Shown piece by piece: positions 21,043 to 63,178 of a DNA stretch of 64,000 nt. The notes beneath the pieces are model-generated. The model did no database searches. It saw nothing but the letters and a program-made list of their open reading frames with translations, and was not told the DNA's origin. Both the position numbers and the translations under genes were made by a program. Origin of the DNA: Akkermansia muciniphila (lineage in GTDB: Bacteria; Verrucomicrobiota; Verrucomicrobiia; Verrucomicrobiales; V1-33); the NCBI GenBank assembly GCA_945861415.1, contig CAMAUV010000001.1:45389-109388 (forward strand), read 5' to 3'. Numbering within the stretch: the first letter of the stretch is position 1; each line of letters begins with the position of its first letter.

Positions 21043-21055
21043 GGAAAGAGTGAAG

Positions 21056-33186: not shown

Positions 33187-33239
33187 TTGCCGGATGACAT
33201 TTCGGCACTGGCCGGCAGCGTGGGGCATTCTTTGACGCG

Positions 33240-35146: not shown

Positions 35147-36094
35147 ATGAGCGCACCCAATCCAGCCATCGACATCCGTGAACTGCGCGTGGACTACGGG
35201 CAATTCGTCGCCGTGAATGACCTCACGCTCTCTGTGCCGGAGGGTCAAGTCTTCGGACTCGTTGGTCCCAATGGCGCAGGCAAGACGAGTACATTTCGGG
35301 TGCTGGCCACCCTCCAGACGCCCACTTACGGCTCTGTGAAGCTCAGCGGGTTGGATATTTCTGAAGAGCCGGAAGAAGCGCGCCGCATTCTCGGTTACAT
35401 GCCGGACCTCGCTCCGGTGCCATCGGACATGAAGGCGTGGGAGTTCCTCGATCTGTCTTGCGAATCCTTCCTTGGCGGCAGTGCGGCTGAGCGCCGGTCC
35501 CGGTGGGAGGAATGCCTTGAGCAGGTGCAACTTGCCGACCGGGCGAAGGCCATGTGCAAGTCCCTGAGCCGCGGGCAAACCCAGCGGCTAGTGCTTGCCC
35601 GCACGCTGCTGCATCGCCCACGGGTCATGGTGCTGGATGAACCCGCCAGCGGCATGGACCCGCTCTCCCGGCGGAATCTCCGCCTCACCCTGCGCCAGCT
35701 CGCCGCCCAGGGCACCACGATCTTCATCAGCTCTCACATTCTCGGCGAACTCGCGGAGATGTGTAGCTCCCTTTGTGTGATGAATCGCGGCGCGCTTCTC
35801 TCCTCGGGCACCGTCGATGAAGTGCGGCAGGCTCTCGGACGCCAGCAGCGCGGTCTTACCATCGCCGTGATCTCGCGCAAGGAAGAGGCAGCGGAATGGC
35901 TGCGCTCCCAGCCGGACGTCCTTGAGGTAGAATGCCATGCCGAACGTCTCGTCCTAGGATACACCGGCACGCAGGAAGGCCAATCGGATCTGCTGGAAGG
36001 ACTTTTCAGGGAGGGCTTTCGCGTGAGTCTCTGCGAGGAGCGGAAATCGAGTTTCGAAGATATTCTCATCACCGTGGCTGAAAAAAACCAATGA
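35147..36094 (+). CDS. ABC transporter ATP-binding protein
   Basis: Walker A is GPNGAGKTST, the signature is LSRGQTQRLVLA, and Walker B is VMVLDEP. An ATGA overlap joins it to the downstream permease. Confidence 0.9.
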   Translation: MSAPNPAIDIRELRVDYGQFVAVNDLTLSVPEGQVFGLVGPNGAGKTSTFRVLATLQTPTYGSVKLSGLDISEEPEEARRILGYMPDLAPVPSDMKAWEFLDLSCESFLGGSAAERRSRWEECLEQVQLADRAKAMCKSLSRGQTQRLVLARTLLHRPRVMVLDEPASGMDPLSRRNLRLTLRQLAAQGTTIFISSHILGELAEMCSSLCVMNRGALLSSGTVDEVRQALGRQQRGLTIAVISRKEEAAEWLRSQPDVLEVECHAERLVLGYTGTQEGQSDLLEGLFREGFRVSLCEERKSSFEDILITVAEKNQ

Positions 36095-46861: not shown

Positions 46862-47467
46862 ATGAATGTCGCTTCCATCCACCAGTCAGTTCTCGCCACC
46901 TTTGCTTTGGCGCTGAGTTGCTCAGTTGTCGGAGGATCGGTTGACGATTCAGTAGCGACTTTGGGGCAGTCGATCACGGAGTTTGATGGCAAGGACGGAC
47001 TGAAATGGAAGGTCGTAAATGACGGAGTGATGGGCGGACTTTCGGAGGGTAAACTTACGCCGGATGGTGGAGGCACGATGAGATTTAGCGGCGTAATATC
47101 TCTCGAGAACAACGGTGGGTTTTCGTCTTTTCGCAGCGGCGATATGAAGCTGGACCTCAGCGGCGCCGCCGGACTTCTACTGCGCGTGAGAGGTGACGGC
47201 CGGACCTATCAGGCACGTCTGGCTACGGACGCTCGGTTTCGCGGGATGGAGGTATCCTTCTCCGCCGAGGTCGGCACGCGAAAAGGCGAGTGGATCGACG
47301 TGAAGGTTCCCTTCGCCGATTTCAAAGGAAGCTTCCGCGGCCTTGCCCTGCCCGACGAACGTCTTGATCCGTCCAAAGTCCGCCGAGTCAGCATTATGCT
47401 CGGTGACAAAAAACAGGGGCCCTTCGAGGTCGAGATTGATTACATCCGGACCAACCCAAAGAGCTGA
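46862..47467 (+). CDS. CIA30 (complex I intermediate-associated protein 30-like) domain protein, secreted
   Basis: WKVVNDGVMGGLSEG...FSGVISLENNGGFSSFRS matches the CIA30 family pattern. Confidence 0.75.
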   Translation: MNVASIHQSVLATFALALSCSVVGGSVDDSVATLGQSITEFDGKDGLKWKVVNDGVMGGLSEGKLTPDGGGTMRFSGVISLENNGGFSSFRSGDMKLDLSGAAGLLLRVRGDGRTYQARLATDARFRGMEVSFSAEVGTRKGEWIDVKVPFADFKGSFRGLALPDERLDPSKVRRVSIMLGDKKQGPFEVEIDYIRTNPKS

Positions 47468-47595
47468 TCCATGCGCTGTGCATGCCGGACTGGCTTGTCA
47501 TGTAGGCGGCGGCAATTATGGGCTTCCTGAAAAGTTCTGGCTAACGCACCGGCCATTCCGGAAAGTGGCATCTCACCATCACCTTCCCCCCACCT

Positions 47596-49290
47596 TTGCT
47601 CGGCTCGAATGGATTTGATTCCATAGATTCTTGCGGCAGTCTGCCTCATGTCTCTCCGCAAACCGATGCAGAACTTCTTCAGGCTTCTTGCCGCCCTTTT
47701 TTCGCGCCGTTGGCCGCTTTGTGTGCCGATGAGACCAGCATCGCCGGGAAATCGGACGTCATCGTTTATGGCTCCACACCCGGCGGGTTTTGCGCGGCCA
47801 TCGCTGCAGCGCGGGAAGGCGCTTCGGTCATTCTGGTGGAGCCGACGCAGCACATCGGCGGACTAAGCACTGGCGGTTTGAGCCATTGCGACTCTCACCA
47901 GATGCGGCGCGAGACGCTGATGGGACTCTTCGATGAATGGCATACGCGGATCGTCAAAGACTACACTGACCGGGGCCTGACCGCGCCCTACGATCCCAAG
48001 CTCAAGAACCAGGCGCTTTGGACCTTTGAGCCGCATGTCGCCATGCGTGTGACGCTGGGGATGCTTAAGGAGGCGGGCGTGGTGGTCCAAACCGGGAGGT
48101 ATTTGAAATCGGTCACCAAGGACGGTGCACGCATCACGTCGCTCGTCACCAAGGACGGTACTTTCCGTGCTAAGGTATTCGTAGATGGCACCTATGAGGG
48201 CGATCTCATGGCGGCGGCGGGCGTGGACTGGACCATCGGGCGCGAGGGCCGTGCGGAGTTCGGCGAATCCTATGCCGGGAAGCAGTATCCCAAAAAGAAG
48301 ATGGAGATCAGTGGCTTTGATGATGAGGGTAAACTATTGCCTCTCGTGACGACCAGCGATGCCGGACCCGACGACGCGGGCGACAAGAATATCATGACCA
48401 ACAGTTTCCGGCTCTGCCTCACGCGCGACCCTGCGAAGCTCGTGCCGATGCCTGCACCGGCGAAATACGACCCCGCTCGCTTCGAACTCGCGCGCCGTGC
48501 TTTTGCCGCGGGCATACGCGGCATTGGCCTCGATCTTTATCCGCTGCCCGGCGGCAAGCAGGATGGCAACAACTCCATCGGTGGGCAGATTTCGCTCGGT
48601 CTTGTCGGTGGCTGCAATACCTGGCACAGCGCAGGTGAAGAGGGGCGCGCAAAGATCTGGGAGGACCACAAACAATACACACTCGAGTTTCTCCACTTCC
48701 TCCGCACCGACCCCGCTGTGCCGGCACAGGTTCGCGATAAGTTTGCAGGCCTGGGGCTGTGCAAGGATGAGTTTCTGGAGACCGCCCACTTTCCCCCCGC
48801 GCTCTACGTGCGTGAGTCGCGGCGCATGAAGGGCCAGTATGTGATCTCACAAAAGGACATCCTCGACTCGCCGGAGAAAGACGACCCTATCGCCATCTCG
48901 TCGTTCCCGATTGATTCGCACGACTGCCAGCGCGTGGCGTTGAAAGAGGGCGGCGTCATCAATGAGGGCACTATTTTTCCCGTACGCTTCGCGAACCCCA
49001 AGGTCGGCTACGCTTACCACGTGCCCTACCGCTCGGTGCTGCCGCAGCCTGCGCAGTGCGGCAATCTGCTCGTGCCCATCGCTCTCTCCTGCACTCATGT
49101 TGCCATTTCATCGCTGCGCATCGAAGGAGCGTGGATGGCTATCGGCCAGGGCGCGGGTGTCGCGGCGGCGCTGGCGGCGAAACGGGACGTCTCCGTGCAG
49201 GAACTGCCGTATCCTGTCCTGCGCGAACGCCTCCTCGCCCAGAGACACGTTCTCAAGCTGCCACCCCCTCCCCCTAAGAAGACAGACTGA
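47596..49290 (+). CDS. FAD-dependent oxidoreductase (FAD_oxidored type); the N-terminal signal peptide is in another frame
   Basis: The dinucleotide loop is DVIVYGSTPGGFCAAIAAAREGASVILVEP..HIGGLSTGG. The track start is TTG with no signal peptide. MQNFFRLLAALF is encoded in the +1 frame upstream of the T6 run at 47697-47702. Confidence 0.75.
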   Translation: MLGSNGFDSIDSCGSLPHVSPQTDAELLQASCRPFFAPLAALCADETSIAGKSDVIVYGSTPGGFCAAIAAAREGASVILVEPTQHIGGLSTGGLSHCDSHQMRRETLMGLFDEWHTRIVKDYTDRGLTAPYDPKLKNQALWTFEPHVAMRVTLGMLKEAGVVVQTGRYLKSVTKDGARITSLVTKDGTFRAKVFVDGTYEGDLMAAAGVDWTIGREGRAEFGESYAGKQYPKKKMEISGFDDEGKLLPLVTTSDAGPDDAGDKNIMTNSFRLCLTRDPAKLVPMPAPAKYDPARFELARRAFAAGIRGIGLDLYPLPGGKQDGNNSIGGQISLGLVGGCNTWHSAGEEGRAKIWEDHKQYTLEFLHFLRTDPAVPAQVRDKFAGLGLCKDEFLETAHFPPALYVRESRRMKGQYVISQKDILDSPEKDDPIAISSFPIDSHDCQRVALKEGGVINEGTIFPVRFANPKVGYAYHVPYRSVLPQPAQCGNLLVPIALSCTHVAISSLRIEGAWMAIGQGAGVAAALAAKRDVSVQELPYPVLRERLLAQRHVLKLPPPPPKKTD

Positions 49291-49324
49291 AGCAGAACCG
49301 AATAGCAACGCAGTAACGCCCGGG

Positions 49325-50242
49325 TTATCCTCCAGACGTCATTTTGACCGGACGGATCAGTCCTTCCTGATCGTACTCGATTTTCTCCACGGCGATCTTT
49401 CTTCCACCCTGGAGCGGCGAGTTTTTCGACGACGTCTCCCAACGGTGATAAACGATGAACCACTCTCCAGTGTTCGGTTTCTCGACGAAGGAGTGATGGC
49501 CAGGCCCCTGGCGGGTGGCATCGCTTTCCAGGATCTTGCCGCGGTATTCCCACGGGCCGACCGGAGTCGATGATGTCGCATAGTGGACGCAGTAACCTAG
49601 GTTGTTCCACCGCCCCTGGCTGTAGCTGAGGTAGTAGGTATCTCCCCGGCGGTGCATGAAGGGTGCCTCTGTGAAATGCGGCGGCTGGGTTACCGTCACC
49701 TCGCTTTTGAAGCTGATCATGTCCTCCGCCAGTTCAAACACGCGAAGTTTCGACCCTGCGCTGCCGCCGGCGTAGAGCCAGGCCTTGTCGCCTTCCGCGA
49801 ATACCATTGGATCGATCGCCTCGAAGCCATTGCCGCCCGTGAGCAGCGGCTTGCCGCTGTCGGTAAATGGGCCGGCTGGCGAGGTGCCGACCGCCACGCC
49901 GATCCGGCTGGGAGTGGGATTTTGCGGGCCGACTGAGTAGTAGAAGTAGAATCGGCCTTTCTTTTCCGTGATGGCTGGTGCCCACGCTCCGTGCCAGGGC
50001 GCGCCGTCAGCTTTCACCCATGGGACCTGATCGAGGTCGAGGATGGTGCCTTCGCGTTTCCACGTCCGCAGATCCGATGAGCGGTAGGCGGCGAAAATCG
50101 GCCGCCGGGTGTGCGCTTCGGTCGGGTAAATCCAGAAGTCCTTTCCCACCACGCAGATATGAGGGTCCGCACCGTCCATCACGGGGTTTGCGGAAAGCGG
50201 GCAGTTCAGAGCGAGTAAAGCGGCGATGCTGCGGCAGTTCAT
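49325..50242 (-). CDS. glycoside hydrolase family 43
   Basis: The ATG at 50242 gives a signal peptide followed by NPVMDGADPHI...WIYPT. Later blocks are WAPAI...GRFYFYYS and the EAP..H region. Confidence 0.8.
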   Translation of the reverse strand: MNCRSIAALLALNCPLSANPVMDGADPHICVVGKDFWIYPTEAHTRRPIFAAYRSSDLRTWKREGTILDLDQVPWVKADGAPWHGAWAPAITEKKGRFYFYYSVGPQNPTPSRIGVAVGTSPAGPFTDSGKPLLTGGNGFEAIDPMVFAEGDKAWLYAGGSAGSKLRVFELAEDMISFKSEVTVTQPPHFTEAPFMHRRGDTYYLSYSQGRWNNLGYCVHYATSSTPVGPWEYRGKILESDATRQGPGHHSFVEKPNTGEWFIVYHRWETSSKNSPLQGGRKIAVEKIEYDQEGLIRPVKMTSGG

Positions 50243-50394
50243 GTTCCTGTCGATACCTGACGCCTTGCCCCGGTCAAGAACCTTGGGCGTGCCGGAGCCC
50301 GCCACCACCAATTCTCCGGATAACCGCAGATGCGTCGCACTTGAACTTCGACATGGCAGTGTGCTCCATCGCATCCATCAAAGGCTCCGCACTC

Positions 50395-52287
50395 ATGAAA
50401 CTCTCTATCCTCTTCCTGATATTCGCTGCACTCCACCGCGCCGACGCAGCAAAACCCAACGTCATCTACATAATGGCAGACGAACTCGGTTACTACGAGC
50501 CGGGATTCATGGGCGGGAAGACTATCAAAACGCCGAACCTCGACCGCATGGCGAAGGAGGGCATCATTTTCCGCAATCTCTTCGCCGGCTCCTCGGTGTG
50601 CGCGCCGACGCGATGCTCCCTTCTCACCGGTAAACACAGCGGGCACATGTCCGTGCGCTCGAATGGCGGCGGCACGCCGTTGCGCGCGGACGAGACGACC
50701 ATCGCCTCAATGCTGAAGCCCCTGGGCTATGCGACGGGCGGCTATGGCAAATGGGGCTGCGGCGGGCGCGACTCGACGGGTGTGCCGGAGAAGCACGGGT
50801 TCGATGAATTCCTCGGCTATTACGACCAGGTTCACGCGCACACGTTTTTCCCGCCCTACCTCATCCGCAACAGTGAGGAGGTGCCGCTCGCGGGCAACAG
50901 CGGCGGCAGCGCCGGCAAGACCTACTCGCAATACGTCATCCACGACGCGGCGGTGAAGTTCATCCGCGCCAACAAGGACAAGTCGTTCTTCGCCTACCTG
51001 CCCTACACCCCGCCGCATGGCAATTTCGACATTCCCGACACCGATCCAGCATGGGAGTTTTACAAGGACGCGCCGTGGCCCGAACCCGCGCGCCGCTACG
51101 CCGCCATGGCCACGATGCTAGACCGCCAGGTCGGCGAAATCCTCGCGCTGCTGAAGGAACTCGGCCTCGATGAAAACACGCTCGTCTTCTTCAGCGGCGA
51201 CAATGGCGGCGCGAATTATTTCGCGTCGAAGGAATTTCCGCGTGGCGTTCACAGCGCGAACAAGCATCCGGAAACCAGCGTCGAGTATCGTGGCAGCAAG
51301 GGCAGCCTCTACGAAGGCGGCCTGCGCATCCCGTTCATCGCGCGCTGGCCGGGAAAAATCGCCCCGGGCCGTGTGACCGAGCACCTCGGCTACTTTCCTG
51401 ACATCCTGCCGACCATCGCCGAAGTCACGGGAGCCAAAACGCCTGCGGACGTTGATGGCATCAGCATTCTGCCAGAGCTGACCGGCGACAAAGAGGCGGG
51501 CCGCGCACAGAAGCAGCACGAGTTTTTGTATTGGGAAATCAATAACTCGATCGCGATCCGTCAGGACACCTGGCGCGCCGTGCGCCCCAAAGCCAACACG
51601 GCATGGGAACTCTACGACCTCGCAACAGATCCGGGCGAGTCGAAGGATCTCGCGAAGATGAATCCTGATGTGCTCGCAAAACTCACCGCCCTCGCGGAGA
51701 AAGCACACGAGCCGGTGCGCGAGGGTACTTTCTCCAGCACCGACCGCCACAAGCGCGACCAGCGCGCCAAATTTGGGAAGCAGGACGAAGCGGAGGCACC
51801 GAAGAGCAAGGCTAAGAGAAAGAAGAAGGCCGCCGCCGCGATGAAAGTCGAGGGACTGCTTGCGAATGCGGGTTGGAAAATCGTGCGCGCGAGCAGCGAG
51901 AACGTGGACAACCAGAAGTTCGCGGCCAATGCCATCGACGGCGACGTGGACACGCTGTGGCACACGAAGTTTGCGGGTGGAATCACGCCGCCGCCGCACG
52001 AACTGGTGATTGATCTCGGTGCGCAGCGCACCATCCGGGGGTTCGCCTACCTCGCGCGTCAGGACGAAGGATGGAACGGCGCGGTGAAGGACGCTGAGTT
52101 TTGCGTGAGTGATTCGCCGGACAAGTTCGGGCCACCTGTCGCGAAGAGTGCGCTCGCGAAAAGCAAGGAGCCGCAGAAGGTCGAGTGTCCGGCGTGCAAA
52201 GGCCGCTACGTCCTGCTCCGCGCTTTGTCCGCCCATACCGAGGGACAATACGCCACCGCCGCCGAGTTGGGCATCATAGGCGAATAA
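50395..52287 (+). CDS. formylglycine-type sulfatase with a C-terminal F5/8 type C (discoidin) domain
   Basis: The ATG at 50395 gives a signal peptide. Sulfatase motifs are PNVIYIMADELG and SVCAPTRCSLLTGKH. A Lys-rich linker precedes AIDGDVDTLWHTKF...PHELVIDLG... Confidence 0.9.
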   Translation: MKLSILFLIFAALHRADAAKPNVIYIMADELGYYEPGFMGGKTIKTPNLDRMAKEGIIFRNLFAGSSVCAPTRCSLLTGKHSGHMSVRSNGGGTPLRADETTIASMLKPLGYATGGYGKWGCGGRDSTGVPEKHGFDEFLGYYDQVHAHTFFPPYLIRNSEEVPLAGNSGGSAGKTYSQYVIHDAAVKFIRANKDKSFFAYLPYTPPHGNFDIPDTDPAWEFYKDAPWPEPARRYAAMATMLDRQVGEILALLKELGLDENTLVFFSGDNGGANYFASKEFPRGVHSANKHPETSVEYRGSKGSLYEGGLRIPFIARWPGKIAPGRVTEHLGYFPDILPTIAEVTGAKTPADVDGISILPELTGDKEAGRAQKQHEFLYWEINNSIAIRQDTWRAVRPKANTAWELYDLATDPGESKDLAKMNPDVLAKLTALAEKAHEPVREGTFSSTDRHKRDQRAKFGKQDEAEAPKSKAKRKKKAAAAMKVEGLLANAGWKIVRASSENVDNQKFAANAIDGDVDTLWHTKFAGGITPPPHELVIDLGAQRTIRGFAYLARQDEGWNGAVKDAEFCVSDSPDKFGPPVAKSALAKSKEPQKVECPACKGRYVLLRALSAHTEGQYATAAELGIIGE

Positions 52288-52300
52288 CTAGCTCTGTTTC

Positions 52301-55300
52301 ATGCCCGTGTTGATTCATCGCACACTTCCCTTCTTCCTGTTCGCAGCCACGGCCTCGTCGCGTGACGATGTGCCGAACTTCAGTCGCGACATCCTCCCGC
52401 TGATATCCGATAACTGCCTCGCCTGCCACGGCCCGGATGAGAGCCATCGCAAGGCGGACCTCCGGCTGGACACTCGCGAGGGAGCCACGGCGCTGAATGA
52501 CGGCGTCGCCGCCATTGTCCCCGGCAAGCCGCAGGAGAGTGAATTGCTCAAACGGCTCCTTTCTAACGACCCCGACGAGGTGATGCCGCCGCCGGAAGCT
52601 CACAAGAAAAAGCTCACCGCAGAGCAAATCGAATTGATCACCAGCTGGATCGAAGCCGGTGCGCCATGGGGAAAGCACTGGGCGTTTGAGAAGCCGCAAC
52701 GTGAAGCGCAACTGCCCGTCAGCGCCGACAATCCCATCGACGCCTTCGTCCTTGCCCGGCTCAAGGCGGAGAACCTTGCACCATCACCCGAGGCTCCGCG
52801 GCACACGCTGGCGCGGCGGGCAGCTTTCGATCTCACCGGGCTGCCGCCGGCGGCGGAAGTTCTGGCCGCTTTTGAAAAGGATGCCACTCCTGGTGCCTAC
52901 GTTCGTTATGTGGACCAGTTGCTGGCCTCTCCGCATTTTGGCGAGCGCATGGCCATGTGGTGGCTCGATGCTGCGCGCTATGCCGACACCGATGGTTTCC
53001 AGGCTGATTCGAACCGGACCAACTGGCCGTGGCGCGACTACGTGGTGGATGCGTTCAATACAAACAAACCGTTCGATCAATTCACGATCGAGCAGTTCGC
53101 CGGCGACCTGCTTCCCGACGCCACTCCCGAGCAGAAAGTGGCCACCTGCTTTCACCGCAATCACATGACGAACGGCGAAGGCGGGCGTGACCCGGAGGAA
53201 TCACGCGTGGACTATGTGATCGACCGGGTGAATACCACCGGTACGCTCTGGCTCGGGCTCACGCTCGGCTGCACGCAGTGCCACTCGCACAAGTTCGATC
53301 CCATCTCGCATAGCGACTACTACTCGCTGACCGCATTCTTTAACAGCATCGACGAGGATGGGAGAGCCGGGAACGACGCCAAGCCCTATCTCTCCTACAA
53401 GTCCCCGCTCGCCGCACGCGCTGTGCAGGAAGCGCAACTCCTGGTGAATGAACGCAAACCCCGCGAAGTCGCAGCGCGAAAAGCTGCAGAGACTCCGTTC
53501 GCCGGGTGGTTGGACGCGCGCTGGGCGGAAGTGCGCGAAGGATTCACCGCGTGGCATCCGGTGATCGTGTCCGAACTCGAATCAATCGAGGGCACGGAAC
53601 TCACGCAGACACCGGATGGCACCGTGCTCGCGGGTGGTCCAAATCCACGCCACGACGACTACCGCCTGGCCGCGCCGGTGAAGCTGCCGCGCATTACGGG
53701 TCTGAAACTCGAGGTTCTTCCGCACGCTTCAAACACCGGTGGCGCGCTCGCGCGGGGCAGCTCTGGCGAATTCATCCTCACCGACATCAAGGTGCAGGTC
53801 CGGCGCCGCGGCAGCTCGCAAATCCGGGACATCACGGTGTCGGGCGCGGTGGCCGATGCATCTGCAGAGCAGAAGGGCGCGCGCGATTATGGCGATATCA
53901 AAGGAGTGCTCGACGACGACCCGCGCAACGGATGGACGACAAAGGGTCTCGATCCAAAGAAGCCTTACAGCGCAGTTTTCGAGTTCGAGGAGCCTCTAGT
54001 GCTGGATGCGGATGAGGAACTCGTCTTTGAAATGCGCCAGCGCTCCACATCAGGCGACGCGAACATCGGCTGCTTCCGCGTGTCCGTGACCGACCAGGCG
54101 GGCGAAGCCGTGCGCAGTATCGAAGTCGCGCCGCTGGAGCGATTGGCGAATGCGAAGCTCTCGGATCTCTCTCAACTCGATGCGAAACTGTGTGCGAAGC
54201 TATTCGAGCAGTTCCTCGCCGACCATGAGCCCTATCAGATTGAGCGGTCCTCATGGGACCGGGCGACGCGCCAGTTGAATGAGGTAAAGAAGAGCGCCGG
54301 CGCATTGAACGTGATGGTGCTCGCCGGGCGCAAGGAGCCACGGGAAACGCATGTGCTCATTCGCGGAGTATGGGACAAGAAAGGGGAAAAGGTCGGACCC
54401 GGCGTGCCGCCCGCCGTGGCACCGTGGCCGGAAAACCAGGATAAGACGCGAGCCGGTCTGGCCCGCTGGCTCGTCTCGCGTGAGAACCCGCTCACCGCGC
54501 GCGTCATTGTAAATCACCTCTGGCAGATGTGCTTCGGCGCCGGACTGGTGCGAACGCCGGATGATTTCGGCCTGCAAGGGGAGCGACCCACGCACCCAGA
54601 GTTGCTCGACTGGCTCGCCGTCGAATTCATGGAGAGCGGCTGGGATGTGAAGCACATCCTGAAGCTCATCGTGACGAGTGCGACGTATCGGCAGTCGTCC
54701 TCCGTGACGCCGGCGATGCTTGCGCGCGACCCGGAGAACCGCCTGCTCGCGCGCGCTTCGCGATTCCGTCTGCCGAGCTGGATGCTGCGCGACGCCGCGC
54801 TCGCCAATGCCGGTCTGCTGAATCCCGCGCTCGGCGGTCCGCCTGTTAAGCCGTATCAGCCGGATGGGGTGTGGGAGGAAATGTTCATGGGCCGTTTCCG
54901 CTACGAGCCCAGCGAAGGCGCGGCGCAATACCGCCGCACGCTCTACGCCTTCTGGAGGCGGGCCATCGCCCCCACCTTCCTGTTCGACAACGCTCAGCGC
55001 CGCGTTTGTGAGGTCGGCAACGCCCGCACGAATACCCCGCTCCATGCGCTCACGCTGCTCAATGACGCCGGCTACCTCGAAGCCTCCCGCGCCCTAGCTG
55101 CACACTCTCTCCGCGCCACCGACCCGCTGCGGGAGATGACGCGCCGGGTGCTGGGCCGCGAGCCGACTGCGCAGGAGAGCACCGTGCTCCAGCGTGAAAG
55201 GGATCGCGCCCTCAGCCACTATCGTTCGCATCCCGATGATGCCGCAAAGTTCCTCGCCATTGGCCAGATGCCGCCCGATTCCACTCTGAACGCTGCGGAG

Positions 55301-55366
55301 CTCGCCGCGCACACAACGGTCGCCAGCCTCATCCTGAACCTCGATGAAACCATCACCCATGAATGA
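52301..55366 (+). CDS. PSCyt1 + PSCyt2/DUF1549 + PSD1/DUF1553 protein (planctomycete-type cytochrome c domain protein)
   Basis: CLACH is encoded at 52415-52429 in [20 protein letters not shown]. The DUF1549-type block is [12 protein letters not shown]. The DUF1553-type block is [36 protein letters not shown]. Confidence 0.9.
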   Translation: [1021 protein letters not shown]

Positions 55367-56804
55367 CCCGCTGCAATCCACCCGCCGCTACTTCTTGGGC
55401 CAATGCACCGGTGTCTCGCTCGGCGCCATGGCTCTGTCCTCGCTGCTTGGAGGCAGTGCTGGCGCCACGACGGAGTCCGCGGACGCCACCGGCCTGCCTG
55501 GCTTTCCGCATTTCGCCCCAAAGGCGAAGCGCGTCATTTTCCTCACTCAGTCCGGCGGGCCGTCACAGATCGAACTCTTCGATGAAAAACCCGGCCTCGC
55601 CAAATGGGCCGGCATCGAGCTGCCCGATTCCGTCCGCCAGGGCCAGCGCCTCACGACGATGACGTCTTCGCAGAAGCAACTCATCATGCCGGCGCGGACA
55701 AAGTTTGAGCGCTGTGGCAAGAGCGGCGCGACCATCGGCGAATGGCTGCCGCACCTTCGCGGAATCGCGGACGATTTGTGTTTCATCAAGTCCATGCAAA
55801 CGGACGAGATCAATCACGCCCCGGCGATGACGAAGTTCCTCACTGGCCACCAGCTTCCCGGGCGCCCGAGCATGGGAGCATGGATGAGCTACGGTCTCGG
55901 CAGCACGAATCGCAACCTGCCGGACTTCCTCGTCCTGATTTCCAAATTGCAGCGTCCGAGCGACCAACCGCTCTACGACCACTACTGGGGCAGCGGGTTC
56001 CTTCCTTCGCGCTACCAGGGGGTGAAACTGCGCAATGCGAAGGATCCCGTCCTCTATCTCCGGGACCCCGACGGCCTGCCGCGCGAACTCCGTCGCGGGA
56101 TGCTCGACGGGCTCGGAGAATTGAATCAGATGCGTCTCGCCGAAACGGGTGACCCGGAAATCGCCACGCGCATTCGCCAATATGAAATGGCGTATCGCAT
56201 GCAGAGCAGCGTGCCGGAATTGACTGACCTCAGCGACGAGCCGGATTCCACCTTTGCTCTCTACGGCCCAGATTCGCGGCGCCCCGGCAGCTATGCCGCG
56301 AACTGCATCCTCGCGCGCCGGCTCGCCGAGCGCGGTGTGCGTTTTATCCAGCTCTTCCATCCCGACTGGGATCATCACAGCCGCCTGCCGTCGTGGTGCG
56401 TCGCGCGCTGCCGCGATACCGACCAGCCCAGCACAGCGCTCATCAAGGACCTCAAACAGCGCGGCCTGCTCGACGACACTCTGGTGATCTGGGGAGGCGA
56501 ATTCGGACGCGGCGTGGCCGGCCAGGGCAAGTGGGACAGCCTCGAAGCCGGACGCGACCATCACCCGCGCTGCTTCACCATGTGGATGGCGGGCGGCGGC
56601 GTGAAGCCCGGCACCACCTACGGCGCCACTGACGACTTCAGCTACAACGTTGCCGAGAATCCCGTCCACGTGCGCGATCTGCACGCCACCGTGATGCGAT
56701 TGCTCGGCATCGATCACGAACGTTTCACCTTCCGCAGTCAGGGCCTGGACTTCCGCCTCACCGGCGTGGAAAAAGCGAACGTAGTGAAGGGCATTCTGGC
56801 GTGA
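55359..56804 (+). CDS. DUF1501 (sulfatase-fold) protein with a Tat-like signal
   Basis: TRRYFLGQCTGVSLGAMAL is Tat-like. Blocks GGPSQIELFDEKP and GGEFGRG...GRDHHP fit DUF1501. The start overlaps the upstream stop by 8 nt; an alternative ATG is at 55344. Confidence 0.9.
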   Translation: MNDPLQSTRRYFLGQCTGVSLGAMALSSLLGGSAGATTESADATGLPGFPHFAPKAKRVIFLTQSGGPSQIELFDEKPGLAKWAGIELPDSVRQGQRLTTMTSSQKQLIMPARTKFERCGKSGATIGEWLPHLRGIADDLCFIKSMQTDEINHAPAMTKFLTGHQLPGRPSMGAWMSYGLGSTNRNLPDFLVLISKLQRPSDQPLYDHYWGSGFLPSRYQGVKLRNAKDPVLYLRDPDGLPRELRRGMLDGLGELNQMRLAETGDPEIATRIRQYEMAYRMQSSVPELTDLSDEPDSTFALYGPDSRRPGSYAANCILARRLAERGVRFIQLFHPDWDHHSRLPSWCVARCRDTDQPSTALIKDLKQRGLLDDTLVIWGGEFGRGVAGQGKWDSLEAGRDHHPRCFTMWMAGGGVKPGTTYGATDDFSYNVAENPVHVRDLHATVMRLLGIDHERFTFRSQGLDFRLTGVEKANVVKGILA

Positions 56805-56904
56805 ACAGGCAACCGGCGCTGCGTGAGGACTTGCGATTTTATTGCACAAACCGCAAAGTTCGGCTGTAACATTCCCTCTATACACATCCCCCGGCTATTA
56901 CACC

Positions 56905-58629
56905 ATGAAACGAACTCTATCCACTCCCGGGGCCAAATGGCTCGCGTCTCTGCTGCTGCTAACTTCCCTCTTTGGCTCCGCCTTCTGCCGGGCGGCCACA
57001 AAGCCCAACGTCGTCATCATCCTCTCTGACGACATGGGATACTCGGACATCGGCTGCTATGGTTCAGAAATCGCCACGCCGAGTCTGGACGCACTGGCGA
57101 AGAATGGCCTGCGCTTCACCCAGTTCTACAATGGCGCTCGCTGTTGTCCCACCCGCGCCTCGTTGCTCACCGGCTTGTATGCGCATCAGGCCGGCATCGG
57201 CTTGATGGAGGGTGACTCTGGCTTCGATGGTTATCGGGGAGAACTGAGCCGGAAGGCGGTCACGGTGGCCGAGGTGCTGCGGCCCGCCGGTTATCGCACC
57301 TACATGAGCGGCAAGTGGCATGTCACTTCCGCCAAGGGACCGAAGGCGGATAACTCGAATTGGCCCGTTCAGCGGGGCTTTAATCGCTTCTACGGAACCA
57401 TCGCCGGTGCGGGCAGTTTCTACGACCCGGCCACGCTTTGCCGCGACAATAAGTTCATCACCCCGGTCAACGATCCGGAATACGAACCAAAGCGGTATCA
57501 CTACACCGATGCCATCAGCGACAACGCGGTGAAGTTTATGGAAGATCACGGCAAGCAACATGCCGAACAGGCCCTTTTTCTATACGTCGCCTACACGAGC
57601 GCCCACTGGCCGATGCACGCGTGGCCGGAGGACATCGCCAGATACAAGGGCCGTTATGACGCCGGCTACGACACCATCCGCCAGGCGCGGTTCAAACGGG
57701 CGCGCGAACTCGGTGTGATCGATCCGCGCTGGAAGATGTCCCCCACGGCAGGCAATTGGGACAGCGTCAGAGACCGCGAGTGGGAAATCCAATGCATGGA
57801 AGTCTATGCCGCGATGGTTGAGGCCATGGACCGCGGCATCGGGCGCATCGTCGCCGAGTTGAAACGGCAAGGCCGACTGGAAAACACGCTGTTCGTCTAT
57901 CTGCAGGACAACGGCGGTTGCTCTGAGGGCCTTGGCCGGAAGTCAAATGCCGATGAGGTTAAAGACAAGGTCTTCAAGCTCATAGGGCCGGACGAGTTCC
58001 AAACGAAAATCTGGCCACCGATGCAGACCCGCGATGGCCGTCCGGTCTTGACCGGCCCGGGAGTCGCTCCCGGTGGCGAGGACACTTACATCGCCTATGG
58101 CGGCGGCTGGGCCAATGTCTCGAACACGCCATTCCGTGGATACAAGCATGATGGCCTGGAAGGCGGCATCAGCACGCCATTTATCGTCCACTGGCCGGCG
58201 GGAACTCCCGAGTCGCGACGCAATGCCGTGGTCAACTCCCCCGCCCATCTCATCGACCTGATGGCCACCTGCGTGGACGTCTCCAAGGCGGACTATCCAA
58301 AGGAGTTCAAAGCCGAGAACATCAAGCCGCTGGAAGGCGTCAGCCTCATGCCCGCGTTCCTCGGCAGAGACTTGCAGCGGACCGCCCCGCTCGCATGGGA
58401 GCACCACGGCAACAGTGCCTTGCGCGACGGCAAATGGAAGATTGTCACAGAATACCGGGACAACCAGCCCACGAAATGGGAACTCTACGACATGGACGCC
58501 GACCGCACCGAACTGTACGACCTCGCCGCCGCGCACCCGGAAAAGATGAAGGAACTCGTCGCCGAATGGCAAGCTTGGGCGGATCGTGTTGGCGTGCAGC
58601 CCTGGCCGCTGAAACGCGCCGCCAAATAG
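56905..58629 (+). CDS. arylsulfatase (formylglycine type)
   Basis: The ATG at 56905 gives a signal peptide. Sulfatase motifs are PNVVIILSDDMGYSD and ARCCPTRASLLTG. Confidence 0.9.
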   Translation: MKRTLSTPGAKWLASLLLLTSLFGSAFCRAATKPNVVIILSDDMGYSDIGCYGSEIATPSLDALAKNGLRFTQFYNGARCCPTRASLLTGLYAHQAGIGLMEGDSGFDGYRGELSRKAVTVAEVLRPAGYRTYMSGKWHVTSAKGPKADNSNWPVQRGFNRFYGTIAGAGSFYDPATLCRDNKFITPVNDPEYEPKRYHYTDAISDNAVKFMEDHGKQHAEQALFLYVAYTSAHWPMHAWPEDIARYKGRYDAGYDTIRQARFKRARELGVIDPRWKMSPTAGNWDSVRDREWEIQCMEVYAAMVEAMDRGIGRIVAELKRQGRLENTLFVYLQDNGGCSEGLGRKSNADEVKDKVFKLIGPDEFQTKIWPPMQTRDGRPVLTGPGVAPGGEDTYIAYGGGWANVSNTPFRGYKHDGLEGGISTPFIVHWPAGTPESRRNAVVNSPAHLIDLMATCVDVSKADYPKEFKAENIKPLEGVSLMPAFLGRDLQRTAPLAWEHHGNSALRDGKWKIVTEYRDNQPTKWELYDMDADRTELYDLAAAHPEKMKELVAEWQAWADRVGVQPWPLKRAAK

Positions 58630-58662
58630 ACTGGTAAAAATCGATTATCCTACGCGAGGACG

Positions 58663-59118
58663 TCAGGCTCTCTGACCCGTGAACACACGGATGATATGTG
58701 AACGCGGGCTGCGACGAGGCGGGCTTTTTTCAATATTGATGGTGAGCCCGGTCTCTGTGCTGCTTAGATTGAAGGTGGCCGTGTTCTCGTTAGCCTCGAC
58801 AATCTTCAGCGGGATGTTGCAAGTGAGGCGGACGTGGGGCGTGTTGCTCTTTTCGTTGATACGGTTGTGGACTCGGTTGGTGCATCTGAGCCAGTTCTGG
58901 TCGCCGACCATCTCTACCGGAAGATAGAACCTTGAGACTATGAAGGGCGCGCAGATTATTGTGAGTCCAGAGTGGCGGACTGGCGGAAGCACATTAGGAT
59001 TGCGGGTTTCAATCTTGGCCCCACTCTTGCGCTCGATAAAACCCAAATGATCAGGCAAATCCACACCCCGGCAAGTCCGCTTCGATGGGCCGGGTTTGGA
59101 GTTGCGCGAGTTAATCAT
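58663..59118 (-). CDS. hypothetical protein (151 aa) in a visibly lower-GC patch
   Basis: This is the longest ORF in the interval and starts with ATG. No family is recognised, so coding status is uncertain. Confidence 0.35.
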   Translation of the reverse strand: MINSRNSKPGPSKRTCRGVDLPDHLGFIERKSGAKIETRNPNVLPPVRHSGLTIICAPFIVSRFYLPVEMVGDQNWLRCTNRVHNRINEKSNTPHVRLTCNIPLKIVEANENTATFNLSSTETGLTINIEKSPPRRSPRSHIIRVFTGQRA

Positions 59119-59126
59119 TTAATGCT

Positions 59127-59681
59127 ATGAGTAAATCGCTTCTTGCATCCACTTACGCCCCGCGGCTGTCGGACCGGAAGGCCTGCGTGTCGGCGGCACA
59201 TGTTAAGGCGAGGTTGTCAGTAAACCGCGAGTTGATTTCCCCTTTCTGGTACATTGGGCGGGAGATTCTGAATTCGCCGAAAGCTGGAGGCCGGGGAACG
59301 AAGGTTGTTGAACGACTGGCGAAGGACGTGGCAGCGGAGTTCCCGGAAATGGGCGGGTTTGCTTACACGAACGTGAAGCGGATGCGCACATTCGCTGAAG
59401 CGAATGAGGCCATCGAAATTAGCCCACAGGCTGTGGGCCTATTGAAGGCTTCGAAGGTGGAAAGCGGAATTGGGTCAAGAAACGGCGAAGCCGGTGCGAA
59501 AGGCAAAAGTGCAGGCTTCATGGTGGATCCCGACCCTGAATTCGTCCGGCTCTGGATTCGCCATCAAGGCAGGGTGGCGCTCTACGTCTCGTTGATGCCG
59601 CGCTCTGCCTCTACCCGCACTGCGAGGCGACACCGAATTATACATCTCCTTAACCAAATTCCGCAGCACCAACAACTATGA
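59127..59681 (+). pseudogene. truncated DUF1016/YhcG-like (PDDEXK nuclease family) gene; only the N-terminal domain is recognisable
   Basis: VNRELISPFWYIGREIL...GRGTKVVERLAKDVAAEFPEMGGFAYTNVKRMRTFAE matches the YhcG N-terminal pattern (VN.EL..YW.IG..I...WG..V.E.L..DL..EFP...GFS..NL..MR.F). Recognisable sequence stops after about 100 aa, and the 184-aa ORF lacks the C-terminal nuclease domain. Confidence 0.55.
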
Positions 59682-61257
59682 AAAAAACCGGGAAACCTGA
59701 TTTCATTCACCTTTTCGTCATCCTGCTTTTCTTCGTTTCCATAGCGACGATCGCCCCGGCCGCCGATTGGAACCGCTTTCGTGGGCCGAACGGTTCAGGG
59801 GTGGCGGAGGGATGTCAGCCACCGATGCTGTTGGGTAAGGATTGTCAGGCGTGGCGTGTGCCCGTCCCGCCGGGCCTGTCGTCGCCCGCACTCTCCGGCG
59901 ACCGCACTCTCCGGCGACCGCACTCTCCGGCGACCGCATCTTCCTCACCGCTGAGAAGGAGGGCGAACTGCTGACGCTCGCATTTGACAAGGCGGACGGA
60001 AAGGAACTTTGGCGACGCGTCTCACCCGCAAAGGCAACCGAGAAAGTCCACCGCGCTGCCAGCCAAGCGTCACCGACGCCTCTGGTCGATGGAGAGCGCG
60101 TCATTGTGTATTTCGGATCTTACGGATTGCTGTGCTACGGCCACAATGGGGAGGAGCTTTGGAAGAAGCCGATTCCAACGCCACAGACCTTGTATGGCAT
60201 GGCCACCTCGCCGATCGGGTTCGGGAACACGGTCATCATGGTGCTGGACGACGACCGGGACTTGCCGGACAGTAAATTGAGCCGGTCGAAGGTCATCGCC
60301 CTCGACAAGGTAACGGGAAACGAAGTGTGGGAGACGGCGCGTCCGTTCTCTCGCAGCGGATGGTCCACTCCGATCATCTGGAACCACAAGGATGGGACAG
60401 ATCTCGCTATCCTGGGACAAGGCAGGCTCGATGGCTACGACCCGGCCACCGGCAAAGGGAAGTGGTACGCCACCGGCTTCTCGCACGAAACGATCGCTGT
60501 CCCCGTTGCGAACCGTGATCACGTCTTCGGATCTTCATCACGGCGAGGTGGTGATGGCGATGCCGACACCGACCCGAAGCCATTCTGGCAATCGATCCTG
60601 CCTTTCGACGAAGACAAGAACGGGAAGATCGAGCGGACGGAAATGAAGCCACCATTCACGTTCCCTTTTCGACCGGAACTTCCGATCGGCCATCCGGGTT
60701 TCGGATTTCCCATGCCGGATAACCTAAAGGATCGGGAGGAGCGCGTGGACTGGATCCTCAGCTGGTTCGACAAGGATAAGGACCGTGCCTGGAGCCAAGA
60801 GGAGTTCATGCAGGGCTTTAAGAAAAAGCCCGGCGAGCCGCTCCTCATGGCGGTTCGTCCCGGCGGATCGGGTGATGTCACCGAGTCTCACGCAAGCTGG
60901 TCTGCGAACAGCCATATCCCCGAGATTCCCTCTCCGCTTCTCCACGACGGCATTCTCTATCTCATCCGGGCAGGTGGTGTCCTCGCAGCGATGGATGCCA
61001 CGAACGGGGAGATGTTCTATCGCGAAAGAGTTGATGCACTCGGCGGCCAGTGCGCAGCATCCCCCGTCTGCGCCAATGATCACGTTTACCTCGTCTCCAC
61101 TCCCGGTGTCATCTCCGTTGTCGCGACTGGAAAAAATTTCAGGGAAATCCACTCCCACGAACTCGGCGAGCCGACTGAGACTACCCCCGCCATCGACCGG
61201 AATTCGATCTACATCCGCACAGAGAAGCACCTGATCGCCTTCCGCAGCAAAAAGTGA
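59678..61257 (+). pseudogene. PQQ-like beta-propeller protein with an internal EF-hand pair, frameshifted by a 16-bp tandem triplication
   Basis: Track ORFs 59678..59974 and 59842..61257 are the two halves. With a single repeat copy the frames join as ...GLSSPALSGDRIFLTAEKEG..., giving one 515-aa ORF. The N-terminal ADWNRFRGPNGSG is typical of the family. Confidence 0.8.
59886..59938. repeat. direct tandem repeat, 16-bp unit GCACTCTCCGGCGACC x3 plus partial copies
   Basis: Exact copies lie at 59888-59903, 59904-19 and 59920-35, flanked by partial matches (CC before, GCA after). The unit length is not a multiple of 3. Confidence 0.95.
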
Positions 61258-61334
61258 AAAATTCTCCGGCAGGTGGGGAACTCGACGGGAATAGTAGGGT
61301 GAATCACCGGCTACACAGTAGCCGGCCTGTTGCT

Positions 61335-61865
61335 ATGGATGAAGAAAAAGAAGCCGAATTCATGGGATTGTTCGTCACGCACGAGCCCGAATTGCGGGCT
61401 TTTCTTCGCACGCTCCTGCCCAGCTGGGAGGCGGTGGATGACGTGCTTCAGGAGGCCAGCGTGGTGATGTGGAAGAAGCTCGATCAGCTTGAGGACGAGG
61501 AGGGATTCCTGCCATGGGCGAAGGTGATCCTGCGCTTCAAGGCGATGCATGCACGGCGCACCGCTGCGCGCGATCGCCTCGTCCTGAGTGAGGAGACGGT
61601 GGCACTGCTGGCCGAGGAGGCGCTCGATTTGGAGCCGGATCAAATGGGCAGAGAACGTAAAGCGCTGGACGCTTGCTTGCAGAAACTCTCCAATGAGAAT
61701 CGGGAGCTCGTTCTCTTGCCGTATCGCAGGCCGGGCGGGTTGACCGAACTGGCGCAGCAGACCAGCCGCTCGTCCAACAGCCTTTACAAGCTGCTCGGCC
61801 GCCTGCGTGAGAAGCTGCGACTTTGTGTGGAGCGCGAACTTGCTTCAGGAGGAGCGCGCCTATGA
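61335..61865 (+). CDS. ECF sigma-70 factor (Rhodopirellula/Verrucomicrobium-type)
   Basis: The protein reads FMGLFVTHEPELRAFLRTLLPSWEAVDDVLQEASVVMWKK and has a C-terminal region 4 (SNSLYKLLGRLREKL). An alternative GTG start at 61254 overlaps the upstream stop. Confidence 0.85.
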   Translation: MDEEKEAEFMGLFVTHEPELRAFLRTLLPSWEAVDDVLQEASVVMWKKLDQLEDEEGFLPWAKVILRFKAMHARRTAARDRLVLSEETVALLAEEALDLEPDQMGRERKALDACLQKLSNENRELVLLPYRRPGGLTELAQQTSRSSNSLYKLLGRLREKLRLCVERELASGGARL

Positions 61866-63178
61866 ACGAGGACAGGTCAGGCGAACTCGTCCAGAGCTAC
61901 TTTCTCGGTTCGATCTCGGACGACGAGGTGGCGGAGCTCGATCGGCGCTTGAAGGAGGATGCGACCGTGCGCGCACTGTTCGCGGCAACCGCACGGCTGG
62001 AAACCAATCTGCGTGATGCGGCCTCGAGTGTGCCCACCGCCAGTGAGGCTCCCCGGCAGGTCGCTCGCCGCCCAAGGCGCCACCTTTTGATCGGACTTGG
62101 GGCTGCTGCGGCGATCACACTCAGCGCGATTCTTGTTTCTCAATTCCGCCCCGGCTCATCTCCTCAACCGATCGCGCGAGTTGCCGAGTTGAGCGGAACG
62201 GTCACTTGGATCGCGGATGGCAGGCAGGAGGATGAGCGCCTGGGGGATGGTGCTGAATTGACCGGTGGCACGCTCGAGGTCTCCTCTCAGGATTCCTGGG
62301 CCGAGGTGGTCTTCAGAGACGGTTCCATCGTTTGGGTGTCTGGTCCCGCCGTGGTGACCCTCTCAGATGGAGAGGCTGGCAAGCTGATCCGTGTCCGGGA
62401 AGGCTATCTGTCCCTCGATGTGTTACCGCAGCCGCCGGACAAACCGATGCGGGTGACCACGCCATCGGCCGAGGCAGTCGTGCTAGGCACTCAGTTCAAC
62501 ATCTCAGCGAACTCGAGCTCGACGAGCCTCACGGTGAACGAAGGTCAGGTCCGCGTAACGCGGCTCGCTGACGGAAGTGTCCAGGAGGTCGGTGCCGACC
62601 AACGCGTCGTCGCGGCGTTGGAACAGGAAAGCCAGTTCGAGGCCCGTCCACGTGGCGAACACGTGCGGATCTGGAAGAGCGAGCTTCCTCGCGATGCGCG
62701 ACAGGGTGAATGGAAGCCAGGAGACGTTGGGAGGGCTGGGGCGTTGCGAGCCGAGGCACACCTCTTCCGAGGTGACCACGGGGAGCAAATCGATCCCATC
62801 CTGCTGCATACTGCGGTGTTGGGACCCTCCGTCGGGGCAATGTCCCCAGTTCTGCTCAGCGAGGGGGCACGCTTCCGAATCCATGGAAGGCTTGATCGGA
62901 GCTTTCGCGTGAACTTTGGGTTCGGAACGCATCACGCACGCGGCGGGTTTTCGGGCAAGTTTGCGACCGAGCGCGAGATCGAGATCGATCAGAATGCCGA
63001 GGGGCTTTTCGAGATCGAGTTCTCCGTCGATGAGTTCCCGCGCATGAGGAGTCGCTTCCCTGAGTCCGCCGTCGGCCATGAACTGGTCTGGTTCTGGATC
63101 CAGACACCCAGAAAGGACGTGGGCTTGCAAGTATTCGGTGTCGAGCTCACCTCACCGGAAGAACCTTCGAAGCGCTAG
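61862..63178 (+). CDS. FecR-family anti-sigma factor / transmembrane sensor
   Basis: An ATGA overlap links it to the sigma gene. The N-terminal anti-sigma helix is YFLGSISDDEVAELDRRLKED. A TM segment LLIGLGAAAAITLSAILV follows. The FecR beta-domain is TTPSAEAVVLGTQFNISA...LTVNEGQVRV. Confidence 0.85.
   Translation: MNEDRSGELVQSYFLGSISDDEVAELDRRLKEDATVRALFAATARLETNLRDAASSVPTASEAPRQVARRPRRHLLIGLGAAAAITLSAILVSQFRPGSSPQPIARVAELSGTVTWIADGRQEDERLGDGAELTGGTLEVSSQDSWAEVVFRDGSIVWVSGPAVVTLSDGEAGKLIRVREGYLSLDVLPQPPDKPMRVTTPSAEAVVLGTQFNISANSSSTSLTVNEGQVRVTRLADGSVQEVGADQRVVAALEQESQFEARPRGEHVRIWKSELPRDARQGEWKPGDVGRAGALRAEAHLFRGDHGEQIDPILLHTAVLGPSVGAMSPVLLSEGARFRIHGRLDRSFRVNFGFGTHHARGGFSGKFATEREIEIDQNAEGLFEIEFSVDEFPRMRSRFPESAVGHELVWFWIQTPRKDVGLQVFGVELTSPEEPSKR

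Follow-up and report, generated by a model that had tools for sequence, protein, structure and literature searches.

A cytochrome and DUF1501 gene pair of Akkermansia muciniphila belongs to a widely conserved module, and its placement between two sulfatase genes is lineage-specific

We analysed a 64,000-nucleotide (nt) stretch of Akkermansia muciniphila DNA (assembly GCA_945861415.1, contig CAMAUV010000001.1, positions 45,389 to 109,388; referred to below as the window), with a focus on two overlapping genes at 52301..56804. The first encodes a multidomain PSCyt protein with cytochrome c motifs and the second a DUF1501 protein with a signal for the twin-arginine translocation (Tat) pathway. 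We found that this pair is an ordinary member of the known PSCyt2/PSD1 plus DUF1501 module and not a new kind of system, and that its position between two sulfatase genes is specific to its lineage. The genes that make up the locus are as follows (window coordinates; aa, amino acids):

52301..55366 (+), PSCyt protein with the domain order PSCyt1-PSCyt2(DUF1549)-beta-sandwich-PSD1(DUF1553), 1021 aa, ATG start, from the open reading frame (ORF) map and Pfam
55359..56804 (+), DUF1501 protein with predicted Tat export, 481 aa, Pfam 8.7e-153
55359..55366 (+), overlap of the DUF1501 start with the PSCyt stop, 8 nt (ATGAATGA), read from the raw sequence
50395..52287 (+), Cys-type S1 sulfatase (PF00884) with a CAPTR motif, a C-terminal F5/8 type C domain and a signal peptide for the general secretory (Sec) pathway
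56905..58629 (+), Cys-type S1 sulfatase (PF00884) with a CCPTR motif and a Sec signal peptide
49325..50374 (-), glycoside hydrolase of family 43 (GH43), from Pfam, divergent from the upstream sulfatase gene

The PSCyt stop codon (TGA, 55364..55366) lies within the beginning of the DUF1501 gene (ATG, 55359), for which an alternative in-frame ATG is found 15 nt further 5', at 55344. The upstream sulfatase gene ends 13 nt before the PSCyt start, and about 100 nt separate the end of DUF1501 from the start of the downstream sulfatase. Since all four genes run in the same direction and are spaced by 13, -8 and about 100 nt, a four-gene operon, in which the pair is co-transcribed with both flanking sulfatases in this organism, is plausible. 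A promoter and terminator scan of 47000..60000 gave signal at the level of shuffled sequence.

The first-pass annotation of the window had described a 1021-aa PSCyt reading frame with a CLACH motif and DUF1549/DUF1553 blocks, overlapped by 8 nt by a Tat-signal DUF1501 gene and flanked on both sides by sulfatases, and had proposed a check against Pfam profiles. These descriptions are borne out by our analysis: the coordinates and domains of the PSCyt frame were verified by ORF map, Pfam and translation, the overlap at ATG 55359 was verified in the raw sequence, the Tat motif S-T-R-R-Y-F-L-G is present in DUF1501, and both flanking products match PF00884 and carry C-x-P-x-R motifs. All four profiles were matched, so that PSCyt1 (PF07635), PSCyt2 (PF07583) and PSD1 (PF07587) stand in one protein next to a same-strand DUF1501 (PF07394), as in the known module.

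The PSCyt and PSD domains were reportedly first defined by Studholme et al. in 2004. Modules of DUF1501 with PSCyt1/PSCyt2/PSD1 proteins, including the exact two-gene architecture found here, were described in bacteria of the Planctomycetes-Verrucomicrobia-Chlamydiae (PVC) group by Kamneva et al. 2012 (PMC3542564), who noted the Tat signals and signal peptides, proposed a role in electron transport and stated that the function was unknown; in addition, the 'Group II' PSCyt2-PSD1 genes of He et al. 2017 (PMC5615132) adjoin DUF1501. The window pair shares the domain architecture, the gene order, the Tat signal of DUF1501 and the signal peptide of the cytochrome with this module and differs from it in nothing structural, its embedding between two sulfatases being a local feature. 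Up to 71 DUF1501/PSCyt copies per genome have been reported, dozens of paralogues in all, many of them with lectin or carbohydrate-binding module (CBM) domains, and electron-transfer or carbohydrate roles have also been proposed in the literature. An exhaustive search matched the window DUF1501 to 25,033 clusters at 50% identity (E ≤ 1e-3), and literature searches on DUF1501, DUF1549, DUF1553, PSCyt and DUF1800 returned descriptive work and no functional study, in keeping with the earlier remark that the module is abundant and has no established function.

Pfam divides the PSCyt protein into PSCyt1 (aa 39-99, E 4e-19), PSCyt2/DUF1549 (aa 145-351, E 2e-83) and PSD1/DUF1553 (aa 716-964, E 4e-92), with E-values that rule out chance matches. 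Three further features were located within it:

52415..52429 (+), haem motif 1, C39-L-A-C-H43 (aa 39-43), in the class-I-like cytochrome c domain PSCyt1
53270..53302 (+), haem motif 2, C324-T-Q-C-H328-S-H-K-F-D-P (aa 324-334), within PSCyt2/DUF1549
53552..54100 (+), central lectin/CBM-like beta-sandwich, about aa 418-600, with an invariant L-D-D-D-P-R-N-G-W; strands modelled at aa 425-597

The second haem motif had been missed by the first-pass annotation and was found in this follow-up. It is invariant among 30 orthologues, its CxxCHxH[KR] form occurs in 82 of the 92 PSCyt2 proteins examined, and two CxxCH motifs per protein are the norm in this set (75/92). M95, a candidate distal haem ligand, is invariant among orthologues as well, and the similarity of PSCyt1 to the Cytochrom_C and CBB3 families is weak. 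The hydrophobic N-terminus ends in ATASS, which we read as a Sec signal peptide. An AlphaFold2 (AF2) model of the protein (predicted local distance difference test, pLDDT, 70.7) arranges, in order, a small cytochrome domain, the helical DUF1549, a long coiled segment, the beta-sandwich and the helical DUF1553. The beta-sandwich has no Pfam match, and its Foldseek matches, to CBM6/11/27 and ConA-like lectins, are weak (E 0.03-0.1, probability about 0.9); the modelled similarity is compatible with carbohydrate binding and is no proof of it. Foldseek returned no structural relative of the helical DUF1549 and DUF1553 parts, and its top match for the whole model, BIRC6, was dismissed at a template modelling (TM) score of about 0.1. 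A sequence search of the PDB gave no match for the PSCyt protein, and NCBIfam held no model for either protein of the pair beyond a weak cytochrome match.

Profile alignment and structural modelling place the DUF1501 protein in the sulfatase/alkaline-phosphatase superfamily fold, in line with the fold given in the first-pass annotation. In hhalign, a profile of 20 diverse DUF1501 proteins aligned over its full length with an S1 sulfatase profile (93.6% probability, E 2e-7). Shallow input alignments (81-90% identical sequences) yielded a poor AF2 model of DUF1501 (pLDDT 50); Foldseek run with this model returned mostly sulfatases among its top 50 matches, together with a few LtaS/LtaP and phosphoglycerate mutase entries. 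PDB searches with the single sequence and with the 20-sequence profile gave marginal sulfatase and LtaS matches only (E 0.05-0.3) and no solved relative. The residue that takes the place of the sulfatase formylglycine Cys is encoded at:

55815..55817 (+), His153 codon, aligned with the formylglycine Cys of sulfatases; His in 85/85 ungapped DUF1501 sequences

The segment H153-A-P-A-M-T-K-F-L-T-G aligns in register with the sulfatase signature C-x-P-x-R-x-x-x-L-T-G, and the Pro at +2 and the L-T-G at +8 to +10 are common to both. In DUF1501, the Cys or Ser that is converted to formylglycine is replaced by His and the Arg of CxPxR is lost, so that the C/S-x-P-x-R motif is absent. The metal-binding residues differ likewise: the N-terminal DD of sulfatases is Q-S/G-G, and the D-H at the end of the 'GDHG' strand is E381-F382, within G-E381-F-G-R384. 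An additional invariant G-R399-D-H401 lies downstream. Among 87 DUF1501 proteins spanning the family, conservation reaches 95% or more at H153, G163, D338, H340, D355, E381, G383, R384, G398, R399 and H401, S69 (GGPS motif) varies, and the Tat Arg pair is kept in 77-78 of 79 members. Thus DUF1501 shares with S1 sulfatases (PF00884) the fold, the register of the helix signature and an alignable strand with its 'G(D/E)xGR' segment, but differs from them in the formylglycine Cys/Ser, the CxPxR Arg, the DD and the DH, and in carrying a Tat signal where sulfatases have Sec signals. Judged by these residues, DUF1501 is not a formylglycine sulfatase. Three His residues with carboxylates, the Tat signal and the lack of a Ser, Thr or Cys nucleophile point to a metal centre in place of a covalent hydrolytic mechanism, and the conserved residues look like such a putative centre.

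The same fold could instead belong to a hydrolytic phosphatase or phosphodiesterase of the alkaline-phosphatase superfamily that serves nutrient scavenging, with the PSCyt protein as a non-redox scaffold or binding partner. The conserved Asp, His and Glu residues resemble bimetal sites, and some secreted phosphatases are Tat-exported. However, the nucleophile position is held by the invariant His153, no Ser, Thr or Cys is conserved there and S69 is variable; the regulators associated with the pair, described below, are of AraC or extracytoplasmic function (ECF) sigma type and not of Pho type; and strict conservation of both haem motifs would be hard to explain in a structural partner. We consider the phosphatase interpretation quite unlikely, and prefer a metal centre of a different, possibly redox-linked, kind.

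We next consider how far the pair is conserved. DUF1501 identity within the orthogroup is 56-89% over four phyla (Verrucomicrobiota, Planctomycetota, Acidobacteriota and Bacteroidota), and a protein database holds more than 120 relatives at 81-99% identity under names from Opitutaceae to Planctomycetaceae. The PSCyt orthologues are 65-72% identical and include those of the cultured Humisphaera borealis and Prosthecobacter fusiformis. A species scan with one genome per species gave 80 loci (DUF1501 identity 56-84%); many of those from Acidobacteriota belong to Bryobacterales, and the Bacteroidota include the isolates Dyadobacter sp. 3J3 and Gelatiniphilus marinus, where the presence of a PSCyt gene upstream was verified. 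Of the 70 loci whose sequence extends far enough upstream, 62 have a PSCyt gene (about 1000-1100 aa) immediately 5' of DUF1501. The median distance from the PSCyt stop to the DUF1501 Tat motif is 43 nt, and it stays below 100 nt in 59/75 loci; eight other genomes also show an overlap of exactly 8 nt (L001, L002, L011, L012, L014, L016, L021 and L025). The tight coupling that had been read from the window alone is thus kept, in order and in short spacing, across orthologous loci. By sequence comparison the pair forms a highly conserved orthogroup that reaches beyond the PVC group into Acidobacteriota and Bacteroidota. Conserved coupling of a Sec substrate with a Tat substrate points to stoichiometric co-production and would fit a periplasmic complex of the two proteins.

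One locus departs from this pattern. The most similar DUF1501 among the species representatives (L009, 6172..7593; 84% identical, from a Verrucomicrobiaceae metagenome-assembled genome, MAG) lacks a PSCyt gene within 6 kb on its 5' side, where a truncated, divergent DUF1501 paralogue is found; either the pairing is truly broken here or the MAG is misassembled.

From the position of the pair in the window, it had been proposed that the two proteins form a periplasmic two-component enzyme, with one haem and one sulfatase-fold subunit, that acts on sulfated glycans or on the substrates of sulfatases. Of the genome-wide neighbour statistics suggested along with this proposal, a count over the flanks of the 80 orthologous loci was made. 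We searched 1,056 kb of their flanking DNA with a hidden Markov model built from the sulfatases of the window and of the loci, and counted accessory families in a seed-based census; unsupervised ORF clustering was dropped because of antisense-ORF contamination in high-GC genomes. The flanks contained 19 sulfatase ORFs, or 1.8 per 100 kb. Sulfatases lie within 10 kb of the pair in 13/80 loci and are absent from that range in 67/80, and a same-strand sulfatase directly adjoins the pair in only two (L047, Solibacteraceae, and L079, Roseivirgaceae). None of the 80 orthologous loci has sulfatases on both sides. The closest non-conspecific orthologues (L089-L091, 87-89% identical) have no adjoining sulfatase: the first lies beside an AraC regulator and a lyase of polysaccharide lyase family 8 (PL8), the second beside a PcRGLX-type lyase, a GFO oxidoreductase and an NHL propeller, followed by an ECF sigma/FecR pair, and the third beside a DUF7133-HEAT-cytochrome c protein and an FG-GAP protein. 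Further close orthologues have a divergent AraC-type regulator in front and unrelated housekeeping genes beside them.

These results do not support a conserved functional linkage between the pair and sulfatases; the position of the pair between two sulfatases is a lineage-specific placement and not a conserved functional clue. An action on sulfated glycans, or on the substrates or products of the neighbouring sulfatases, still has points in its favour: in the window four genes on one strand, 13, -8 and about 100 nt apart, stand beside a GH43 gene, adjoining same-strand sulfatases recur independently in L047 and L079, a sulfatase lies within 1.5 kb in 7/80 loci, one domain of the cytochrome is CBM-like, and genes for carbohydrate-active enzymes (PL8, PcRGLX-type lyase, BNR sialidase) occur near several close orthologues. 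Against it stand the 67 loci without a sulfatase within 10 kb, the lack of any other double-flanked locus, the low flank density with a near-to-far ratio of only about 2, the closest orthologues, the missing formylglycine motif of DUF1501, and the many sulfatase-free loci of the orthogroup in Acidobacteriota and Bacteroidota. We therefore regard a sulfated-glycan enzyme as doubtful. What stands of the earlier proposal is its periplasmic two-component frame of a haem and a sulfatase-fold subunit, which is reasonable, and what does not is its link to sulfated glycans, which follows from a lineage-specific neighbourhood only.

The position between two CxPxR sulfatases, together with redox cofactor motifs, could also suggest a role of the pair in maturing or repairing the Cys-type sulfatases beside it, by haem-dependent generation of formylglycine, and these two features are all that speaks for such a role. 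The orthologues lie mostly far from sulfatases and occur also in sulfatase-poor lineages, and dozens of paralogues per genome are unlike a maturation factor. With so many paralogues, and no co-localisation with sulfatases, we rejected this role as extremely improbable.

Any one accessory family is found beside the pair in about 16% of the species loci at most. After sulfatases (13/80), the commonest neighbours are a membrane cytochrome with DUF2231, PSCyt1 and leucine-rich repeat (LRR) domains (11/80), an NHL propeller (10/80), a Tat-GFO oxidoreductase (9/80), an AraC regulator (8/80) and a BD-FAE esterase (6/80). In Bacteroidota and Acidobacteriota the operon is often longer and includes an NHL-type six-bladed propeller and the membrane protein with DUF2231, PSCyt1 and LRR. 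Propeller and membrane-anchored protein together would fit an electron-transfer chain to the membrane.

The operon repeatedly includes a third gene, for the NHL-type six-bladed propeller (about 360 aa), that the window lacks. An AraC-type regulator precedes the pair in other genomes, often in company with this propeller gene. In Opitutaceae-like genomes the propeller gene lies between PSCyt and DUF1501 (L003, 8875..9978; L007, 8607..9692; L090, 6887..7981), and in Bacteroidota and Acidobacteriota just 3' of DUF1501 (L055, L077, L084, L085 and L086).

A membrane-directed chain recalls the original proposal of Kamneva et al. that the module belongs to an electron-transport or membrane-compartment-related system; it would then have no specific catabolic substrate. 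The haem motifs, the Tat and Sec signals and the membrane-anchored PSCyt1 protein of the extended operons agree with it, as does the published correlation of one DUF1501 subfamily with intracellular membranes (r = 0.852; PMC3542564). However, the orthogroup is abundant in Acidobacteriota and Bacteroidota, groups without such compartments, dozens of paralogues occur per genome, many with lectin or CBM domains, and AraC-type regulators, which probably respond to small molecules, stand beside the closest orthologues. We consider a system of this kind, lacking a substrate of its own, very unlikely.

Our preferred interpretation is that the pair forms a periplasmic complex of a cytochrome and a metalloprotein, which acts on a carbohydrate-derived substrate in a step that depends on a metal and is possibly redox-linked, and was recruited here into a sulfatase operon; we hold this overall account to be evenly poised between right and wrong. 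In this account, the PSCyt protein would be exported by Sec, with its two c-type haem motifs as predicted sites of haem attachment, and DUF1501 would be exported by Tat, which suggests that it is probably folded and metal-loaded in the cytoplasm. The two proteins would assemble about 1:1 in the periplasm into the predicted complex. DUF1501 would be the catalytic subunit, built on a sulfatase/alkaline-phosphatase scaffold with His in place of the formylglycine nucleophile, and its putative metal site would comprise H153, D338, H340, E381 and H401, plus D75, K77, R384 and R399. The PSCyt subunit may bind the substrate through its beta-sandwich and would probably transfer electrons through its two haems. 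Metal-dependent, possibly redox-linked chemistry on a carbohydrate-derived substrate would then be more likely than hydrolysis of sulfate esters, and the flanking sulfatases would represent a lineage-specific recruitment into one operon. We infer complex formation, the metal centre, the redox role and the substrate class.

A more specific version is that DUF1501 is a new enzyme class, in which the His together with D338, H340, E381 and H401 ligates a redox-active metal and the dihaem PSCyt protein shuttles electrons, so that the pair would act on glycan-derived substrates as a periplasmic oxidoreductase and not as a hydrolase. We put this forward tentatively and consider it rather unlikely as it stands. 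If it were true, the dozens of paralogous pairs in each PVC genome would amount to an unrecognised oxidative arm of polysaccharide degradation. Few uncharacterised gene families of Planctomycetota, Verrucomicrobiota, Acidobacteriota and Bacteroidota are as large as the DUF1501/PSCyt pairs. The high conservation of the orthogroup, its apparent cultured carriers and the exchange of formylglycine for His offer a practical entry for biochemistry and genetics, for which a sulfatase neighbourhood is an unreliable functional clue.

Several observations weigh against the account that we prefer. Sulfatases are the commonest accessory neighbour of the pair, in 13/80 loci and within 1.5 kb in 7 of them, and sulfatases within 4 kb outnumber those farther away by 13 to 6 at similar exposure, an approximately two-fold excess that is statistically weak; a modest but real association of the orthogroup with sulfatases may exist. 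Given the poor AF2 model, the active-site geometry of DUF1501 is drawn from sequence and profile alignment. The hhalign confidence is low in the N-terminal half, around H153, and we assign this residue to the formylglycine register despite this, from the common motif register and its strand-then-helix position in the AF2 model. The CBM-like similarity of the beta-sandwich is weak (E 0.03-0.1). Finally, DUF1501 relatives in other phyla are reported to pair with DUF1800, a helical, haem-less partner without cytochrome domains, and if this holds, the core chemistry of DUF1501 may not need electron transfer.

Comparison with other two-gene systems sets the pair in context. The reported DUF1800 plus DUF1501 pairs (COG5267/COG4102) of Proteobacteria, Actinobacteria and SAR202 contain the same DUF1501 family as the window. 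In SAR202 genomes COG4102, COG5267 and the beta-propeller COG3391 co-vary in abundance (PMC6946804). Pairs of PSCyt3-PSD2-5 with DUF1552 form a parallel system in the same genomes, a multidomain protein with a cytochrome motif followed by a Tat-type DUF protein, but their Pfam families differ from those of the window pair and none lies within the window. Periplasmic sugar dehydrogenases linked to cytochrome c, such as GSDH-cytochrome c fusions and the GFO/IDH/MocA oxidoreductases exported by Tat, offer a functional analogy only, in that electrons pass from their periplasmic catalytic subunit to a c-type haem; their beta-propeller or Rossmann folds are unrelated to the sulfatase fold of DUF1501, which has no motif for pyrroloquinoline quinone (PQQ), flavin adenine dinucleotide (FAD) or nicotinamide adenine dinucleotide (NAD). 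Genes of this dehydrogenase type are found near several of the orthologous pairs.

The window contains a second DUF1501 gene, and a pair of regulatory genes downstream of the first:

27191..28660 (-), second DUF1501 with a Tat signal, Pfam 1e-104, 28% identical to the first
61254..63178 (+), ECF sigma factor and FecR-type anti-sigma pair, 4.4 kb 3' of the first DUF1501

We found no other PSCyt, DUF1549 or DUF1553 ORF in the 64,000 nt, so that the second DUF1501 is without a partner there, as the first-pass annotation had it. The genes 5' of it encode an FkbM-type methyltransferase, a small unannotated ORF and another sulfatase. Its orthogroup is also highly conserved, with identities of 77-100% among Verrucomicrobiales. 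A 1715-aa PSCyt1-WD40-PSCyt2-PSD1 gene precedes the orthologue in Roseimicrobium sp. ORNL1 (78% identical), and in an 88%-identical relative the gene is solitary, as it is in the window (compared loci L093, 1808..8470, and L094, 7001..8470). The lineage of the window has therefore lost the partner, or the partner has moved.

An ECF sigma factor was linked to a PSCyt2/PSD1 gene in R. baltica by Studholme et al., as cited in a passage of PMC2754498. In the Opitutaceae locus L090 (87% identical), the ECF sigma/FecR pair (9484..11108) follows DUF1501 directly; from this arrangement, the downstream sulfatase and the 58.6-61.2 kb segment of the window may be insertions into an older PSCyt-DUF1501-sigma-FecR order. 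The right flank of the locus shows signs of rearrangement. A metagenomic contig (L008, 728..6254) is 97.7% identical to 53617..59121 of the window and diverges from it at both ends, inside the PSCyt gene upstream and at 59121 downstream, past which it carries an IS1595 transposase in place of the DUF1016_N fragment of the window (59127..59681). This contig has its sulfatase and PSCyt genes broken into pieces, and its divergence could be a strain-level rearrangement, pseudogenisation or an assembly error.

Upstream of the cluster, two further genes were assigned:

47596..49290 (+), FAD-dependent oxidoreductase (PF12831)
40499..46741 (+), bacterial alpha-2-macroglobulin, 2080 aa, with MG2, A2M, bait region, TED and bMG10

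The start codons of the divergent GH43 and sulfatase genes (50374..50395) are only about 20 nt apart, too close for two promoters to fit between them; unless one of the starts is wrongly assigned, the promoters would lie within the adjoining coding regions. Elsewhere in the window, several long ORFs (297-577 aa) gave no Pfam match at E ≤ 1e-3: those at 31720..33483 (both strands), 36091..37824 (+), 34136..35071 (-), 6298..7311 (-) and 20266..21159 (-). The two at 31720..33483, each of about 485 aa, overlap on opposite strands, and it is impossible that both are genes.

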